This document shows positions 5,629 to 25,054 of a DNA stretch of 25,251 bases, piece after piece. The DNA comes from a virus (Duplodnaviria; Caudoviricetes). Position numbers and translations under genes: made by a program. The stretch is taken from IMG/VR virus record IMGVR_UViG_3300020151_000454, positions 1 to 25,251 of that record. The stretch is one strand, 5' to 3'. Each line of letters starts with the position of its first letter. Position 1 is the stretch's first letter. The notes under the pieces are model-generated. The model did no database searches, had not been told where the DNA came from, and was given only the letters and a program-made list of their open reading frames with translations.

Positions 5629-5876
5629 CGGTTGGTCAGTTGCAGGATGACAACGGTTAACCCCGCCGATGCGAGGCCGTAAACAGGGGCAAGGACCCAA
5701 CCGCAGGTGGGGAGGGTCAGGGCCACCGCCACCCAAAAAGTGAGGCAGGTCACGCAACTGAACGGCTTGTGCCTTGCGAACCAGGTGCTATACCAAGCCT
5801 GCGGCAGGACATGGTATTCCGCAATGGCAAGGGCGGTCAGCGAACTAATCAGCAGGGGAAATATCAGCGTGTCCAT
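5625..5876 (-). CDS. DUF1360-like membrane protein
   Basis: Start refined to MDTLIF; hydrophobic segments; KPFSCVTCLTFW motif. Confidence 0.65.
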   Translation of the reverse strand: MDTLIFPLLISSLTALAIAEYHVLPQAWYSTWFARHKPFSCVTCLTFWVAVALTLPTCGWVLAPVYGLASAGLTVVILQLTNR

Positions 5877-6396
5877 GGTTTTGTATTGCGGCCTTGATTT
5901 TGGCCTTGGCTTGGTCGATTGAGTAAATGATGCTGCGGTACGGAATACCCGTGTCACGGGATAATTTCTTCATGTTCCCCGTCCGGAGGTGGAGGCGGAG
6001 CAGTTCCTTGTCATAGGGGAAAGCCCCGTCCTTAGCCCAAGTGTCCATTTCCGCTTCGGCGATGGCCCACAGGTCGTCCATGAGGGAATCATATTCCGCT
6101 TGGGGGATGGGGGAATCGGGGTCCAGTTCTTCGAGCAAGTCGTGGTGGCGGTACTTTTGGGCAAATTGGTTGTTCTTGCCTCGGTACAAGTTGAGCAGCA
6201 ACCGAACCACATAGAACTTAAAATACCCCTGCGAGTGGATTTGCATAATCTTGGCGGGGTCTTTTTCCAGCAGGATAAGGACGCACTCCTGCTCCAAGTC
6301 CCTCCAAAGCGGGTCGCCTCCTGTAATCGTTAGGCAGGCTTTTCGGATTTCGCCCGTGCGATAGAGGTCGAGGATGATGGTGTCTGCGGATGCCAT
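5845..6396 (-). CDS. Phage RNA polymerase sigma-70/ECF-like factor
   Basis: Region 2-like DLEQECVLILLEK...FKFYVVR and region 4 HTH MKKLSRDTGIPYRSIIYSI; start MASAD lies 3 nt after AATCTTTG. Confidence 0.75.
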   Translation of the reverse strand: MASADTIILDLYRTGEIRKACLTITGGDPLWRDLEQECVLILLEKDPAKIMQIHSQGYFKFYVVRLLLNLYRGKNNQFAQKYRHHDLLEELDPDSPIPQAEYDSLMDDLWAIAEAEMDTWAKDGAFPYDKELLRLHLRTGNMKKLSRDTGIPYRSIIYSIDQAKAKIKAAIQNHGHADISPAD

Positions 6397-6399
6397 GCA

Positions 6400-6407
6400 C
6401 AAAGATT
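6400..6407 (-). promoter_or_regulatory. Bacteroidota-type -7 box variant (AATCTTTG), leaderless start of the sigma gene
   Basis: 7/8 match to TAnnTTTG, 3 nt before the ATG, directly after a terminator U-tract. Confidence 0.5.
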
Positions 6408-6409
6408 GC

Positions 6410-6441
6410 AAAAAAAAGGGGGATGCAGTTAAGCACCCCCC
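6410..6441 (-). terminator. Intrinsic terminator
   Basis: GGGGGGTGC-TTAACT-GCATCCCCC followed by T8. Confidence 0.85.
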
Positions 6442-7949: not shown

Positions 7950-9377
7950 TTATTTGAGGATTGGAAAACGGTCTTTGTTGTGAAAGGCCCAGCCTGGCTT
8001 CCATCCCATGAAACGAATGAACTCCAAGGCTTCGGCTTTGCTCTTGCATTGGTTGTGCAAGACCCAAAAGGGCGAAATTACTTTGGCCTTCGCCAGTTGT
8101 GCCTTTTGGTACATGCTGCTGGTCGTGGCCAACTGCATGCCCTGGGCTTTGGTCATCAGGTGCAGGTCCACCATTTCGCCCTGCTCTTGGGGCTTGCGCT
8201 GGTACTCGTAGCCGCAATGCTTGCACTTCATCGCCCCAACGGGGATAATCGCCTCGCATCCCTTGCAGTTCTTCGCCCCGCCAACGCCATCGGATTTCTT
8301 CTTGCGTTTCTTTTTGAGGGACCATTGCTGCCGGTTCTCCCAAAAGCCATGGGTCTGCACGTTGTTCCCGAAGTCAAGGATGGTGAACTCCTTCTTGGTT
8401 GGGGTTACCCTGGAACCACGGCCCACCATCTGCATGAATAGGGGAAGGCTTGCGGTTGCCCGGTATAGGATAACTACCTCGATGGTTGGCTCGTCAAAGC
8501 CCGTGGTCATAAGGTCGCAGTTGCAAAGGATGGCATCGGGCGCATGCTTGAACCACGCCAACACATCGGCCCGCTCCTACTTGCCCATGGTCCCGTCTAC
8601 ATGGCGGGCGTTGTGGCCTGCAATCTGCAAAGCGGCGCAGACCTCTTGACTGGATGCAATATTGCTGGCAAACACGATGGCCTTCTTGCCCCTGCAATGC
8701 CTCCCGTAGTTTTGGACCACCCCGTCAAATACCCTTCGCTTGGAATAGACCGTTGCCATTTGCTCCGTGTCGTAGTCATTCCCCTTCATGCGGATTCCGG
8801 AAAGGTCTTGGTTTGCGCCATAGGTCACGGGGTTGGCAAGGAACCCTTGGTCAATTAATTCCTGCACCTGAACTGGCACATGCAGAACCTCGTAGAACTT
8901 GGACAGGCATTCTTGGTTCCCACGACGCAGAGGTGTTGCGGTGGCTCCGATGACCACGGCCTTGGGGTTGATGTATGGCAGCAATGGGTTGAAGGTCTGC
9001 TTGTGGGCCTCGTCGATGATGACCAGGTCCATTCGGTTCAGCAAATCCGTGTATTCGGTTGCGTCCTTCCTACGGCTGAAGGTTTGGGCCATGGCTATAA
9101 AACAATTACCCGAAACATCCAGTCGGGTCTTGCTGGCTTCGATGAGGGTTGGCTTGATTCCGAACAGGTCCAAGGCTCCGTTGGATTGTTTCAGCAGTTC
9201 CACTCGGTCCGTGAAGATGATGGCCTGCTTGCCTTTCTCCAAGGCTCTTGCGACCATGTAGGTAAACATGACGGTCTTCCCGCTTCCGGTCGGGGAGCAG
9301 AGTATCAAGCGTTTCTTGCCCTGGGCAAGACTTGTCCGCATTTGGTCAATAGCGGCTTGTTGGTAGGGTCTTAGCAT
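7950..9377 (-). pseudogene. SF2 DEAD/DEAH helicase with C-terminal Zn finger, interrupted by one in-frame TAG (8577-8579)
   Basis: LRPYQ, SPTGSGKT, DEAH, TATP, TTGFDEP, QMVGRGSR and CKGC..CKHC all lie in one frame; the junction reads MGK*ERADVLAWF. Could be a pseudogene, read-through or a sequence error. Confidence 0.8.
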
Positions 9378-11816: not shown

Positions 11817-11825
11817 AGCATTAAG

Positions 11826-11860
11826 AAAAAAACGCCCCAACTGTTCCGGCAGCTGGGGCG
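11826..11860 (-). terminator. Intrinsic terminator directly upstream of the primase-helicase (attenuator-like)
   Basis: CGCCCCAGCTG-CCGGAA-CAGTTGGGGCG + T7, ending 9 nt before the ATG. Confidence 0.8.
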
Positions 11861-11944
11861 AGGGGTTACGATGGATTGAACCCTTTATCTAAACACCGCA
11901 TGGCCGGAAACATGAGGTGGTTATTGGTAAATGTAATTAGTTCA

Positions 11945-11952
11945 CAAAGTTA
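11945..11952 (-). promoter_or_regulatory. Bacteroidota -7 promoter box (TAACTTTG) heading the primase leader
   Basis: Exact TAnnTTTG just after the stop of 11955-12200. Confidence 0.6.
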
Positions 11953-11954
11953 CA

Positions 11955-12200
11955 CTAAAAAGGCATATCACCATCTTGGGGGGCAAAATTCCCGCCGCTG
12001 GTCTGCTGCTGCATGGGTTCCACTTTGCCTGACAAGAATTTTCTCTCGCCGTTTCTTGATTCTCGAATCCATGCGGAGAGCCGCATCTTGGTCCCGTCGG
12101 GGAGAATGATGTCGCCCTTGTAGTCGGGGCGTTTCGGATTGTCGCCCTTATCGTTGGCGAACAGGGAGAAGGTGTTGGGTTGGGGGGTGTAATCGCTCAT
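11955..12200 (-). CDS. DUF736-like putative single-stranded DNA-binding protein
   Basis: NPKRPDYKG...LSAW...FLSG and an SSB-like acidic tail DGDMPF. Confidence 0.7.
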   Translation of the reverse strand: MSDYTPQPNTFSLFANDKGDNPKRPDYKGDIILPDGTKMRLSAWIRESRNGERKFLSGKVEPMQQQTSGGNFAPQDGDMPF

Positions 12201-12637
12201 GGGTTTTGGGTTGGGGTTTGGTTTTGGTTGGGATTTAAAAGGTTTCGTAATGCGATGATAAACTCTTGCTCTTCCTTGGTTGTTTGGAATACGCTGGATA
12301 AAGATTCAAATAATTCAAGACGAGTAGCCTTTGGTACTTTGGCGGTCTTTGCGGGGGATTTTTTGTGTTTATTCCGTCGCTGCATCACCAGTTCGTTTGC
12401 TAACTTTAAACTTGGGGTTAATCCAGTATGAAAATATAAATACCCCTTTTTTTCAAGAAAACCAATAGCAACAAGATATTCATTGATGTGGGTGGTAGTG
12501 TTAAACTTTTGCGAAATATTGCGCTTTATCCAACTGTAAGTGACGCCTTTGTGGCAATCGGGCCAGCACAATCTTGACATGATATGGAGAATGTTTTCCT
12601 GTTGGTTTGCGGCTCGTACTCTTGTTTTTGTTTTCAT
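12197..12637 (-). CDS. Hypothetical protein (AT-rich, basic)
   Basis: 146 aa, AAACCATG start, coupled to the next gene. Confidence 0.65.
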   Translation of the reverse strand: MKTKTRVRAANQQENILHIMSRLCWPDCHKGVTYSWIKRNISQKFNTTTHINEYLVAIGFLEKKGYLYFHTGLTPSLKLANELVMQRRNKHKKSPAKTAKVPKATRLELFESLSSVFQTTKEEQEFIIALRNLLNPNQNQTPTQNP

Positions 12638-12640
12638 GGT

Positions 12641-12868
12641 TTAAAGGTTTTGGGTTGGGTTTTGATTGGGTTGAATTGAGTATTTGCAATTTTCTTGTAC
12701 GAGCCAATTCGAGACCCGTAAATCGCTTAGGATTCGATAGGTGGTACGGATGGTCACCCCAAGCACTTCGGCGAGTTCTGATGCCCTGTATGGGCGTGAG
12801 GCGAGGTACGACACGGCGTAGATGGTGGCGACTCTTCGTTGGATTTCTTTTCCTTTAGGTTTGGGCAT
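12641..12868 (-). CDS. Winged helix-turn-helix regulator (HTH_11-like)
   Basis: YRASELAEVLGVTIRTTYRILSDL. Confidence 0.8.
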   Translation of the reverse strand: MPKPKGKEIQRRVATIYAVSYLASRPYRASELAEVLGVTIRTTYRILSDLRVSNWLVQENCKYSIQPNQNPTQNL

Positions 12869-12870
12869 GG

Positions 12871-13320
12871 TTAAGTGGTCTTAAAAGTTACTGCGATGCT
12901 TGGTTTTGTCCCTTTGGCGGGACATACGGGGATCGCTTCGCCCGTCGCTTCGTCGTACACCGTTGCCTTGCCAGCGTTGCGGAATGCCATCTTGAGCAGT
13001 TCTTCACGGGCTTTCATCGATGCCTGCAGGTCGCTCCAAACTTGGTCATGCGAGTAGTCGGGAGTCAACGCCCCCTCCTTGACTTGGATTTCTGCACCGA
13101 AGGCGGAGAAGGTTTTGCCGTGCTTTTCGGCTTCGTCCCGTACGATGTCCTCGGTCGCTTTGAGGACTTGCTCCAGGGCTTTGACGACCGCCTTCAAGCG
13201 TACATGGGCGGCGATGGGGTTGACCTCGCCTTCCTCAATGCGGAGGATAAGGCCAGCGGCGATGTCGGCGATGTCAGCCTTGCTGATGTCCGACTTGGGG
13301 ATGGTGACTAAGTGGTTCAT
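12871..13320 (-). CDS. Conserved phage hypothetical protein (recombination module)
   Basis: 149-aa helical ORF in the Sak operon; codon usage matches core genes. Confidence 0.7.
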   Translation of the reverse strand: MNHLVTIPKSDISKADIADIAAGLILRIEEGEVNPIAAHVRLKAVVKALEQVLKATEDIVRDEAEKHGKTFSAFGAEIQVKEGALTPDYSHDQVWSDLQASMKAREELLKMAFRNAGKATVYDEATGEAIPVCPAKGTKPSIAVTFKTT

Positions 13321-13556
13321 GGCATTGTGGTTGTTTGTTGGGATTTAAAAAGGAATTGGAAGGTGTGGACTTTGTTGTCCCAAATTTGGCGAGGAAGATG
13401 GGCAGCGAACCACAGCATATCGGAGCCAGTTAAATCAAATGGCCATTCGTGCTTTTGCAGGATAGCGATGAGTTTCTCCCCCATTACGGGTTGGCTTGCT
13501 TTGATGTCAAGAATGGCTTTATAGACATCGGCGTTGCAGGTTTCTAATAAGGTCAT
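13317..13556 (-). CDS. Hypothetical protein
   Basis: 79 aa, tightly packed in the operon. Confidence 0.65.
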   Translation of the reverse strand: MTLLETCNADVYKAILDIKASQPVMGEKLIAILQKHEWPFDLTGSDMLWFAAHLPRQIWDNKVHTFQFLFKSQQTTTMP

Positions 13557-13559
13557 GGC

Positions 13560-14198
13560 TTATTTTTTAGACAGTTGGTTTTGGATGAATTGAATGCCTT
13601 TCTCATAGCGGGCGGGGGTCATTTGGTCGATGTCCTTCATGAACCGCTCCTGCTGGTCGGCGGGCAGTTTCTGCAACAATTTGAGGAAGTCGGCTTTGAG
13701 CGTTGCGGCGGTGAGGTCGTCGTAGGCGGGAACGAGGCCGAGTTTGTCGTTGAGGTCCAGCAGGTTGGTGTTGGCGGGCTTGGGGGCCGCTCCGTGCTTG
13801 CCTTTATAGACATCAATGCCGATTCCAATCCACGAAGCAATCTTGGTAATCGCATCCGTGGTCGCACCCTTGGCGGCATCGCCTGGGTCGGAGTTGGTGC
13901 TGGATGCAATACACTCGTAGTAGATGTCGTGGGCGGGAGCCGTGAAGATGGTCTTGGCCACGGCGGTGTACTCAATCCGCTCACGGCCAGCGTTCGTCGT
14001 GGTGTGGACGGTTGCAATAGGGGAAGACAGGTCGGTCTTGACGACCCATCCACCGACACCAAAAACTTGGTTGAGGCGTTCGGTCACGAAGATGCCCTTG
14101 ATGGTTGAGAGGCCCGCCATGCGGGGATGAGCAGCAATGGCTTCGGGTGGAAGTGGCTCGGCAATCTTGGCGAGTTGTTCGGGGGATAGTGGTTTCAT
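13560..14198 (-). CDS. Rad52/Sak-like single-strand annealing recombinase
   Basis: VTERLNQVFGVGGW and DAAKGATTDAITKIASWIGIGIDVY. Confidence 0.85.
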   Translation of the reverse strand: MKPLSPEQLAKIAEPLPPEAIAAHPRMAGLSTIKGIFVTERLNQVFGVGGWVVKTDLSSPIATVHTTTNAGRERIEYTAVAKTIFTAPAHDIYYECIASSTNSDPGDAAKGATTDAITKIASWIGIGIDVYKGKHGAAPKPANTNLLDLNDKLGLVPAYDDLTAATLKADFLKLLQKLPADQQERFMKDIDQMTPARYEKGIQFIQNQLSKK

Positions 14199-14210
14199 GG
14201 TTTGGGGGGT

Positions 14211-14330
14211 TTAGTTGGTGATGATTGCAAAAAAGAATCTGCCGAAAAATGCGATGCCGAGGCAGGTGGTCAGCACGATGTAGCCCGTCGCAAGGGCGGC
14301 TTTGAGTTTGGTTTTGGTTTCGTGGGTCAT
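14211..14330 (-). CDS. Small membrane peptide (39 aa)
   Basis: MTHETKTKLKAALATGYIVLTTCLGIAFFGRFFFAIITN, after the leader ACCACCAACC. Confidence 0.65.
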   Translation of the reverse strand: MTHETKTKLKAALATGYIVLTTCLGIAFFGRFFFAIITN

Positions 14331-14340
14331 GGTTGGTGGT

Positions 14341-14577
14341 TTAGTTTCCGGAGAATTGGTTGAATTTCGCTGCAACACAAGCATTGTGCTGACGGACGAT
14401 TTGGATGCTGATGTCGGCCAAGCCGGAAGCATCAAGGTCGCTGATGCTGCACTCCTCAAGGCGAAGCCATTGTGCGCCGAAGCCGGTGGCGGTGATTTTG
14501 CCGTTGGTCAAGTTGATAGACAAAGAATTGTCAAACAAGGTGATGAAGTTGTGGGTGGGGGTTTTGATAGTTTTCAT
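14341..14577 (-). CDS. Hypothetical early protein (first gene of the leftward operon)
   Basis: 78 aa, A/C-rich leader downstream of TATCTTTG. Confidence 0.7.
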   Translation of the reverse strand: MKTIKTPTHNFITLFDNSLSINLTNGKITATGFGAQWLRLEECSISDLDASGLADISIQIVRQHNACVAAKFNQFSGN

Positions 14578-14600
14578 GGTTTTGTGGTTGGTTTGTAGGT

Positions 14601-14608
14601 CAAAGATA
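14601..14608 (-). promoter_or_regulatory. Leftward early promoter -7 box (TATCTTTG)
   Basis: Exact TAnnTTTG; the 13-bp context AGGTCAAAGATAC is identical at 24513-24525. Confidence 0.75.
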
Positions 14609-14671
14609 CAGCGGTTTTCTCTTTTGCGACCATTGTAGTCATTTTTTTATAAATCTTTTTTTTGGCCCCTA

Positions 14672-14731
14672 CACCCGAAGCGGTATAAATTCCTAATTTT
14701 CGCCATAAATGCACCCGAAAGCGTATAAATT
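14672..14731 (+). repeat. Two 20-bp imperfect direct repeats, 40-bp period
   Basis: CACCCGAAgcgGTATAAATT (14672-14691) and CACCCGAAagcGTATAAATT (14712-14731). Confidence 0.8.
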
Positions 14732-14733
14732 TG
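14726..14733 (+). promoter_or_regulatory. Rightward promoter -7 box (TAAATTTG), leaderless
   Basis: Exact TAnnTTTG, 4 nt before ATG 14738. Confidence 0.65.
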
Positions 14734-23335: not shown

Positions 23336-23363
23336 TAAATGTAGGATGCGCCCGAATTTCACA
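23336..23363 (-). promoter_or_regulatory. Putative late promoter TGTGAAATTC-N11-ACATTTA
   Basis: Twin of 19145-19172. Confidence 0.6.
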
Positions 23364-24435
23364 ATTTGCGCCCGATGCTTCGGTAGAGTTCGGCCCTTCT
23401 TTCGGCGGTCTTGCTGATGTCAAAGCGTTCCCGCACATCCTTGGACAACTGCATGGCAAGCCCCTTGGCGTAGTCGGGTTCGTTCACGAACTTCCTAACG
23501 GCCTTGTACCAAGCGTCTTTCTTCCCGTATGGGATGAGCAGACCGTTGTGGCCGTGGACGACGATGTCGGTGTAGGGGATGGTTTCCGAGGCGATGATTG
23601 CCTTGCCCATCCAGCCCGCTTCCACGACTTTCAACTCCGATTTGAGGCGGTTGAACTTGGTATCTCGGAGCGGTGCGATGGTTGCGTTGATAAAGTTGTA
23701 CCCGCCGACATAGGAGTAGATGTCAGCCGCTTGGATGCGTCCGTAGTTCTTGTTTAGCCCCTTGCAGGATAGCATCCGTTCGTAATCATCGTAAACGGCG
23801 TTCCCGTCGTTCCACCCACCGAGGTAGATTTTGTATCGCCCGTCAAGGGATTTGTCGTGGGCCAGTAAGCCGAAGGAATGTTCTACGAGTGCGATGTCCT
23901 CTTGGTGTTGCGCCCCTCCAAACCAGCCGATTTTGAACAGGTGCGGTTCGGGTTCAGCATTCGTGTCGGGGAGGTACTGCTGGTAGGCTTCGTATGGTTC
24001 ATTGGGCAGGATGGTCACGGCCTTGTTGAGCAGGCGTATCTTCTGCGCCAAGTGTTCGGTCGTCGTGGTCACATGGTCAGCCAAGCGGATGTGCTCACGA
24101 ATTTGCTCGTCCAATTTCGTGGACAAATAGTGCCGATACATGATGTGTCCCGATTCCAGCACCCAATAGTCGTCAAGGTCCAAGATTACCTTCGCCCCAA
24201 ACGCCGTGAGAGCCTCGTAAACCTTCCGAATTTGGTCCAGCGTACCTTGACACCACAAGCGGTTAAAAAGCCAAACATCGACCGTCTTTAGGTCTTCATC
24301 TTTGACATTGCCGATGTTGTCCACGCACACATAGTCAAACTCCGTGTAGTTGTCACCGAGGTAGGCGTTCGGCATTTCCAGTCGGTAGAAGGAACACCCC
24401 GTCGGGTGGGCGTTGTAAACGATGCAAATTCTCAT
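23359..24435 (-). CDS. GT-B (family 4-like) glycosyltransferase
   Basis: Start refined to MRICIV; YRLEMP, DLDDYW, IGWFGG and FNRLKSELKVVEAG motifs. Confidence 0.88.
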   Translation of the reverse strand: MRICIVYNAHPTGCSFYRLEMPNAYLGDNYTEFDYVCVDNIGNVKDEDLKTVDVWLFNRLWCQGTLDQIRKVYEALTAFGAKVILDLDDYWVLESGHIMYRHYLSTKLDEQIREHIRLADHVTTTTEHLAQKIRLLNKAVTILPNEPYEAYQQYLPDTNAEPEPHLFKIGWFGGAQHQEDIALVEHSFGLLAHDKSLDGRYKIYLGGWNDGNAVYDDYERMLSCKGLNKNYGRIQAADIYSYVGGYNFINATIAPLRDTKFNRLKSELKVVEAGWMGKAIIASETIPYTDIVVHGHNGLLIPYGKKDAWYKAVRKFVNEPDYAKGLAMQLSKDVRERFDISKTAERRAELYRSIGRKL

Positions 24436-24438
24436 GCC

Positions 24439-24446
24439 CAAAGGTA
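24439..24446 (-). promoter_or_regulatory. -7 box (TACCTTTG), leaderless start of the glycosyltransferase
   Basis: Exact TAnnTTTG, 3 nt before the ATG. Confidence 0.65.
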
Positions 24447-24447
24447 C

Positions 24448-24479
24448 AAAAAAAAGGGCCACCCCTTGCGAGATGGCCC
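24448..24479 (-). terminator. Intrinsic terminator
   Basis: GGGCCATCTC-GCAA-GGGGTGGCCC + T8; GNRA loop. Confidence 0.9.
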
Positions 24480-24513
24480 AGACCACTAAACCATGCGGCG
24501 TATGAGAACCGCA
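24448..24513 (-). ncRNA. Candidate ~65-nt trans-acting antisense small RNA
   Basis: Has its own -7 box (24517-24524), a 5' hairpin UGCGG/CCGCA, a single-stranded linker and a terminator; complementary to 12865-12881 and 11893-11905. Confidence 0.6.
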
Positions 24514-24516
24514 GGT

Positions 24517-24524
24517 CAAAGATA
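24517..24524 (-). promoter_or_regulatory. -7 box (TATCTTTG) for the candidate sRNA
   Basis: 13-bp identity to the early promoter at 14597-14609. Confidence 0.65.
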
Positions 24525-24526
24525 CT

Positions 24527-25054
24527 TTACGAACCGCTGATTTGGGTCGTGGAAGCCGAGAAAGTTGCAGCGAGGATGTTCAGCATTGCATCGGGCTCCA
24601 TGCCCGTCAGCGTCATCTCGTAGCCTGAACGGTCACCGAATGCAGTACCCGTTCCAGCAGTCCCAGCGGAGGCTTCCAAGCCATTCGCAGCACCCAACAC
24701 CCAGTAGCGGTTGTTGTTGTCTTGGACGATGACCAGCAAGCGATTCCGAGCCAAGAGGCGCAATTCATTCCGCACGGCGGTCTGCAACTTGTTGATGGTA
24801 AAGGTTACTTCGGGAGTGTAGAACAAGGTTCCGTTCTCGGTGCTTGCGTTTAAGGTTTCCGTCATGGACGAAGTGGCCTTGGTCAAGTCGTACTCGTAGA
24901 ATCCTGATGAGAAACCCGTGAAGCCTGTGACCGTTCCGCTTCCGTTGGTGTTCACGGAACCCGTTGGGTTGAAGGCTTGGACAAAGACAGTTTTGATGCC
25001 GCCGACTGAATCACGGCATCCGAGGGCGTAGCCCGTAGTTAGGGAGCAAGACAT
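24527..25054 (-). CDS. Putative major tail (tube) protein
   Basis: MSCSLTTG...CRDSVGGIK, ENGTLFY and GDRSGYEMTLTG; follows the capsid gene. Confidence 0.7.
   Translation of the reverse strand: MSCSLTTGYALGCRDSVGGIKTVFVQAFNPTGSVNTNGSGTVTGFTGFSSGFYEYDLTKATSSMTETLNASTENGTLFYTPEVTFTINKLQTAVRNELRLLARNRLLVIVQDNNNRYWVLGAANGLEASAGTAGTGTAFGDRSGYEMTLTGMEPDAMLNILAATFSASTTQISGS

Follow-up and report, generated by a model that had tools for sequence, protein, structure and literature searches.

A conserved promoter-to-terminator unit in the late region of a tailed phage, with complementarity to early-gene leaders and a possible antisense role

The locus and the phage that carries it

The window considered here, meaning the whole 25,251-nucleotide (25-kb) stretch of DNA that was analysed, is part of a tailed phage, with nearly all of its genes on the minus strand. 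Comparison with PHROGs and Pfam identified terminase, helicase, primase, SSB, Rad52-like recombinase, amidase, portal and glycosyltransferase genes. The gap between the last of these and the structural gene upstream of it is occupied by a compact intergenic unit, the parts and neighbours of which are as follows.

24527..25054, minus strand: upstream structural gene, putative tail tube (phrog_19091, function unknown), next after the capsid-gene terminator
24517..24524, minus strand: Bacteroidota -7 promoter box TATCTTTG, assigned from the sequence, with consensus and 4-5 nt spacing as reported in PMC6847099
24448..24512, minus strand: predicted small RNA of ~65 nt, deduced from promoter and terminator, which would also be the 3' terminus of the late mRNA from upstream
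24494..24513, minus strand: 5' hairpin with the near-invariant loop CUCAUAC (24506-24500)
24480..24493, minus strand: single-stranded G/U-rich linker with the invariant core GGUUUAGUGG at 24492-24483, the proposed seed
24448..24479, minus strand: intrinsic terminator (10-bp stem 24479-24456, GCAA loop, U8)
24439..24446, minus strand: second -7 box TACCTTTG, after the U-tract and 3 nt upstream of the glycosyltransferase ATG
23359..24435, minus strand: glycosyltransferase gene (GT1 family), the downstream neighbour (phrog_7162, E 1.6e-47; PF13692)

An earlier, sequence-only reading of the window had described a promoter box, hairpin, linker and GNRA terminator between putative tail tube and glycosyltransferase genes, and all of these are present in the sequence; "tail tube" is that reading's label, PHROGs assigning phrog_19091 unknown function. 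The box TATCTTTG at 24524-24517 (-) lies 2 nt past the stop codon of ORF 24527-25054. The primary sigma factor of Bacteroidota has been reported to use TAnnTTTG as its -7 element, transcription starting 4-5 nt downstream (PMC6847099, PMC7366714), and the 5' end of the RNA is predicted at 24512-24511. Thirteen TAnnTTTG boxes occur in the window, six of them just before genes or right after stop codons; a sigma-70 promoter scan was set aside as not relevant to a Bacteroidota-type host. The 13-bp identity noted earlier between this promoter and the early promoter (14597-14609) is exact, and since the same promoter-plus-ACCT string also stands at the head of other transcripts in relatives, it marks a promoter class. 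The unit as a whole folds with a z-score of -3.76, a stability equalled by none of 200 shuffles, and the GNRA loop of its terminator is not conserved, five other loop variants being found among relatives. No conserved ORF is present in the unit: both a 15-codon frame on the opposite strand (disrupted by indels, its ATG gone in 36/95 loci) and a Met-Val-stop mini-ORF (broken by indels or loss of the ATG in several variants) were considered and rejected.

Groups A, C and E of the relatives (defined below) keep the second box at a distance of 3-4 nt from the glycosyltransferase start codon, and a -7 box 3 nt before the ATG implies that the glycosyltransferase has its own, probably leaderless, mRNA. 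Boxes or near-boxes 3-4 nt before an ATG, often after a terminator U-tract, were seen at 24439-24446, 14726-14733 and ~6400-6415, pointing to leaderless mRNAs as a frequent feature of the phage. Leaderless mRNAs are rare in the Bacteroidota studied so far.

Several other features of the window deserve mention. The 183-aa ORF 5845-6396 (-) has no Pfam hit and resembles, by features only, protein clusters of which a minority carry Sigma70_r2, r4 or GerE domains; this sigma-like resemblance is a lead for separate late transcription, and the word CATTTAC, found before several late genes, may be a promoter for its product. The helicase gene at 7950-9377 (-) is split into two ORFs (8577-9377 and 7950-8564) where relative G001 has a single 476-aa ORF, which reflects a frameshift or an assembly error. 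Finally, a second promoter-to-terminator unit of ~105 nt with three hairpins lies between the SSB and primase genes (11825-11952, minus strand). Complementarity over 7-10 nt links the loop of its first hairpin (11909-11903) with the loop region of the terminator (11850-11844), and this loop-loop match was found in 20/20 genomes that possess the unit (31 examined), in nine different matched sequence pairs. No Rfam hit was obtained for it. These sequences suggest a fully covarying kissing-loop RNA, which as a structured-RNA candidate arguably outranks the unit at 24448-24524.

The closest cultured phage is Nonlabens phage P12024S/L, with a similar gene order and 33% identity in the upstream structural protein. 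Relatives of ~31-35 kb are common in IMG/VR, where they amount to hundreds of contigs. Tyrosine integrase, serine recombinase and HTH_3 proteins were found in none of the 5 complete relative genomes searched, and among 185,579 prokaryote genomes there were only two matches to the family, contigs of 1.8 kb (Clavibacter assembly) and 21 kb (Chitinophagaceae assembly); on both counts the lineage looks lytic. The 1.8-kb contig (L463) is probably mis-binned in its Clavibacter-labelled assembly.

Conservation of the unit among relatives

Protein queries fetched 293 loci, redundant among themselves, of which 233 contain the region; they were sorted into groups A-F, labels that denote intergenic type and are not based on a tree. 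In type A, to which the window belongs, the promoter box directly follows the stop codon in 95/95 protein-fetched loci, the linker core GGTTTAGTGG is likewise present in all 95, and the hairpin loop CTCATAC in 94. By comparison, only 10 of the upstream gene's 90 third codon positions show no variation, and the spacer, stem and terminator loop all vary. The exact 17-mer of the window occurs in only 18/95 type-A loci, and CAU precedes the core in 59/95. This comparison across loci shows the pattern expected of purifying selection on the linker core. The 5' hairpin folds in 32/32 pattern-found variants, which differ in stem length and sequence. Pair counting on a 15-sequence alignment, in which one structure pair was out of register, was uninformative, 88/500 shuffles reaching the real score, and support for the hairpin therefore rests on the folding of each variant.

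More distant groups have other sequences, yet they retain a G/U-rich single-stranded stretch before the terminator. The promoter box is kept in 104 B/F, 13 C and 4 E loci and is missing from 10/14 D loci, and the Chitinophagaceae-binned contig and P12024S possess the tail alone. GGTT is missing from 2/231 inspected intergenic regions (L285 and L325), as well as from one group-D variant. In P12024S, a U/G-rich tail stands at the same place, and its sole other match of at least 13/15 is the leader of gp24. That phage also has another short unit after its holin gene (L465:10170-10245), composed of a -7 box, a U-rich stretch and a terminator. In group F, two tandem paralogues of the upstream structural gene were observed (L270:4658-6401), the second extended to ~397 aa and followed by the unit; neither a pattern scan for long contigs nor a metagenome scan yielded group-F contigs with an early region.

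Complementarity of the linker to early-gene leaders

The G/U-rich linker is complementary to a C/A-rich tag in the leaders of several early genes, 10-12 kb away. The sites of interest in the window are the following.

14577..14608, minus strand: early promoter box (14608-14601) and first early leader, where the site 14588-14577 pairs with the linker at 11/12 positions, -13.9 kcal/mol
14208..14219, minus strand: leader of the Rad52-like recombinase gene (PF04098), predicted secondary target, -13.3 kcal/mol
12865..12881, minus strand: 16/17 site, covering the last codons (K-T-T-stop) of gene 12871-13320 and the ATG of HTH gene 12641-12868
12637..12648, minus strand: leader of ORF 12197-12637, predicted secondary target, 10/12 match, -11.7 kcal/mol

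Enrichment of the complement at gene starts has been demonstrated in group A. In 16 genomes searched with a tolerance of 1 mismatch, the 12-nt core had 25 complementary sites, all on the coding strand and none on the opposite one, with 20 of them in leader zones and 5 outside; leader zones make up 4.8% of positions, and 1/120 shuffled cores equalled the real one, figures to be read in the knowledge that cores were picked post hoc, after a prior look at the data, and that related genomes are not independent. The steadiest site, CACTAAACC, stands right behind the early promoter and is retained under two promoter-leader types. Once the costs of opening local structure were included, gene starts beat internal ATGs in 4/5 genomes (p 8e-5, 0.036, 0.004 and 7e-4; the fifth 0.105), whereas plain duplex energies, without accessibility terms, made starts and internal ATGs equal. 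As a further control, the terminators of 26 genomes of at least 24 kb were compared, and a leader-matching tail was found in 17/26 tube terminators and in 0/54 others; in group B only 2/8 genomes scored. Group C passes the shuffle test at two mismatches (0/120), group D fails the enrichment test (0 hits when 1 mismatch is allowed), and the B2 core does poorly, with 9/120 shuffles equal to it.

A comparison of groups A and B shows what appears to be a change in step. The group B linker is UGAGGUUU, and B leaders carry AAACCTCA: the words AAACCTC and AACCTCA occur in 15 and 13 of 365 B leaders, in 1 and 1 of 703 A leaders, and in none from C or D. Likewise, B RNAs are predicted to pair at about -11 kcal/mol with B leaders as against -8 with A leaders, a preference of ~3 kcal/mol. 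Linker and leaders would therefore have changed together in one matched change which, because the genomes are related, counts as roughly one event. The preference is not reciprocal. In each of the four groups, leaders contain 7-mers from the A linker equally often (2.2-2.8 per 100), A RNAs pair equally well with B leaders, and C and D RNAs reach -13 to -14 kcal/mol on A and B leaders. Moreover, B leaders keep CCACTAAACC though part of its complement is gone from the B linker, which argues that the leader tag has a constraint of its own.

The sequence-only reading had proposed a single target, the HTH gene, and a long match that is indeed real. Positions 24480-24496 pair with 12865-12881 at 16/17 nt, the sole such match in the window (next best 14/17); a score of 16 was reached by 0/40 doublet shuffles of the window (best 13-15) and by 1/3000 within-leader shuffles, a test run on 36 hand-listed starts of which at least one is not exactly on its ATG. 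It is also the strongest site in this genome, the top-ranked start at -18.4 kcal/mol, and is likewise seen in relative G006. Conservation tells against a dedicated pair, however. The site occurs in 6/16 group-A genomes, before the HTH gene in 2 of the 6 and before another gene in the other 4, and it belongs to the end of the upstream gene. In the paired set of 11 genomes with both the unit and an HTH orthologue of at least 80% identity, 16/17 was found in 2 and 10-13/17 in 9, with the linker the same or nearly so and no compensation; close HTH orthologues mostly have different leaders. In those 9 genomes the first early leader pairs better than the HTH start, and across all 11 it pairs at -12.5 to -19.3 kcal/mol. 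The product itself, 75 aa and HTH-like, falls below every Pfam cut-off. As for the suggestion that repression of this gene forms a developmental or immunity (lysis-lysogeny) switch, the absence of integrase, resolvase and CI-type (HTH_3) proteins from the 5 complete genomes leaves a lysogeny switch unsupported. HTH repression as a conserved function is thus largely refuted, and a dedicated trans repressor serving as such a switch is very improbable; the HTH junction may be one real site among several. What survives of the proposal is a conserved, probably transcribed, non-coding unit with its single-stranded stretch antisense to early translation starts.

The early region is itself variable. 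Within 12197-14577 the early genes are shuffled as cassettes among relatives, some of which carry a tandem pair of HTH paralogues there, and the repeated A/C-rich early leaders may serve as recombination joints.

Competing explanations and a possible mechanism

Part of the unit may have a second function, in cis. In group B and in those A variants with a UUCUCAU loop, the opening 11-13 nt of the glycosyltransferase gene find their complement in the arm and loop of the hairpin. For a read-through transcript of the window, this helix is the predicted fold, setting 12 nt of hairpin arm and loop against the gene's first 13 nt (z -3.12); in the free RNA, the hairpin hides this arm. A purely cis-acting element, in which the hairpin of a read-through RNA pairs with the glycosyltransferase start and translation proceeds only from the leaderless mRNA, would account for the invariant loop, and the loop and the second codon change together between A and B. 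The start is predicted to be paired in all 8 genomes of group B and in the 7 of group A whose loop is UUCUCAU; opening it costs 5.3-5.4 kcal/mol in those groups as against 3.0-3.7 for shuffled bodies, or ~2 extra. Real sequences exceeded all 14 shuffles in only 3/9 and 5/9 sampled regions, however; other A variants (29/65 distinct A regions, 9 sampled) gave 3.0 versus 3.5, no effect above shuffles, and the effect was nil in groups D and E (up to 9 regions sampled per group). Such an element would leave the invariant linker and the upstream promoter unexplained, and it is improbable as the whole account. As the hairpin's own job, a cis role on the glycosyltransferase is likely, if less well supported, and can coexist with a multi-target antisense RNA. 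Mimicry of a tRNA or initiator-tRNA anticodon by the loop was also considered and rejected (ARAGORN 0 genes, no Rfam hit, loops of 7-10 nt, loop absent in groups C-E); the glycosyltransferase start accounts for the loop better.

The tail could, alternatively, be a feature recognised by a protein or acting through its structure, such as a stability or pausing element at the 3' end of the late mRNA or an inverted DNA site, its complementarity to leaders arising from base composition or short-repeat conversion. Pairing of G/U-rich with A/C-rich sequence is in part generic, 3/15 terminators in a Chitinophagaceae assembly of ~190 kb have tails of at least 70% G+U, and the phage encodes a Rad52-like annealing protein which could support short-repeat conversion. 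Yet cores shuffled to the same composition almost never match leaders, other phage terminators have no such tail, the 25 other group-A copies all share one orientation with 20 of them in leaders, and a neutral inverted copy would not remain invariant, so that we regard this account as unlikely. Less likely again is an RNA whose main targets belong to the host's mRNAs or to a co-infecting rival phage with similar leaders. Its own host-type promoter would permit immediate expression, and the finding that A RNAs pair no worse with B leaders than with A leaders fits a competitor target; against a host target, the 13-mer tag with an ATG was found in only 31/301 Bacteroidota genomes, with at most 2 in each, much as for a control pattern, in a sample that may not include the true host. 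From this background level, the tag looks phage-specific.

Taken together, these considerations lead us to favour, somewhat ahead of even chances, a multi-target antisense RNA that brakes translation of early genes. The anatomy and conservation of the unit, its complementarity to leaders, the enrichment of sites at starts and the one matched A/B change are observed in the genomes; from them we infer transcription, pairing in the cell and repression. Because the predicted RNA mirrors a tag that precedes several early genes, damping of a group is indicated rather than silencing of a single regulator. The cassette would make a 65-base RNA from its own host-type promoter, and the exposed G/U-rich linker would pair with the C/A-rich tag at several early starts, chiefly the first early leader, lowering translation of the first early gene, the recombinase and their neighbours together. 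Bacteroidota mRNAs, as reported in PMC6847099, have no Shine-Dalgarno sequence and depend on unpaired A-rich leaders, and for this reason covering the leader should block ribosome loading. The RNA would also arise as the 3' end of the abundant late structural mRNA, turning early translation down late in infection. Indeed, since the terminator is common to the upstream gene and promoterless groups keep the G/U-rich tail, the oldest form was probably the 3' end of the late mRNA, to which the internal promoter would add an early, feed-forward dose.

A broader version of the antisense reading is doubtful but can be formulated. The C/A-rich early tags and a two-domain master-repressor RNA would constitute a private leader code in place of a CI-like protein, the linker shutting the early genes of the phage and of co-infecting kin while the hairpin gates the glycosyltransferase. 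If true, joint changes of tag and RNA would give rise to exclusion groups. Even the simpler multi-target brake offers a testable answer to how small, repressorless lytic phages turn down their early genes, and it could be turned into a small tool for silencing several Bacteroidota genes at once. IMG/VR samples the family well, and natural variants are thus at hand for compensatory tests.

Comparison with known regulatory RNAs

Rfam contains no family for the unit, and no hit at gathering score was obtained in the window or in three complete relatives; c4 (RF01695) was not among the 5 weak hits at E up to 10. Likewise, no member of an antirepressor family was found among the 40 ORFs of the window. 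To our knowledge, the known antisense repressors of phages (sar, c4 and CI) have one target each and belong to temperate phages of enterobacteria. No description of the unit was found in the literature searched, which took in part of the supplements of a phage RNA catalogue (PMC10690425).

The c4 RNA of P1/P7, as described in PMC12197685, is a 77-nt trans-acting RNA whose target is the ribosome-binding region in an mRNA of the phage, and the present unit resembles it as a small phage RNA of similar size with complementarity to starts, known here from sequence. C4 differs in its one target (ant), its temperate phages and its pairing through loops, whereas the unit has a seed in its linker, matches more than one early leader and shows nothing that points to lysogeny. 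The same source describes sar of P22 as an RNA of ~68 nt whose pairing blocks translation initiation (PMC12197685). Sar has one antirepressor target and lies in an immunity region; the unit has many imperfect sites 10-12 kb away, with no antirepressor identified, and it fails to show the long, near-perfect and conserved pairing with a regulator seen in sar, 16/17 being found in 2/11 paired genomes. The CI RNA of P4 has been reported to pair with short sequences in the early leader transcript (PMC4825925). CI is processed from the very transcript it controls and acts by premature termination in lysogeny, while the unit, at ~10 kb from the early leader, sits in the late region between a promoter and a terminator of its own.

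For the hairpin, a different precedent is of interest. In gene e of phage T4, the start codon is sequestered in long transcripts and an internal promoter yields a free mRNA, an arrangement that fits the hairpin and its downstream neighbour. The unit differs in that the sequence upstream comes with a hairpin, a promoter and a terminator, and in that the effect is missing from part of the variants.

Finally, the unit displays general features of trans-acting sRNAs: a dedicated promoter and an intrinsic terminator, the absence of any conserved ORF, and a conserved single-stranded seed set against several targets. Change of seed and target in step is limited to the one matched change between A and B, with group D failing and the A seed not group-specific. 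A counterpart from the same phylum is GibS of Bacteroides thetaiotaomicron, reported in PMC7366714 as a trans sRNA with a single-stranded seed that represses at starts without a Shine-Dalgarno sequence. Phylum, seed and start-region targets would be shared with the unit; GibS differs in being chromosomal, about 145 nt long and directed at metabolic targets, and no sequence relation was seen in Rfam. If the favoured reading is true, an apparently lytic phage would here use one RNA to act on several targets through a phage-specific leader tag, in a phylum whose ribosomes ignore Shine-Dalgarno sequences.
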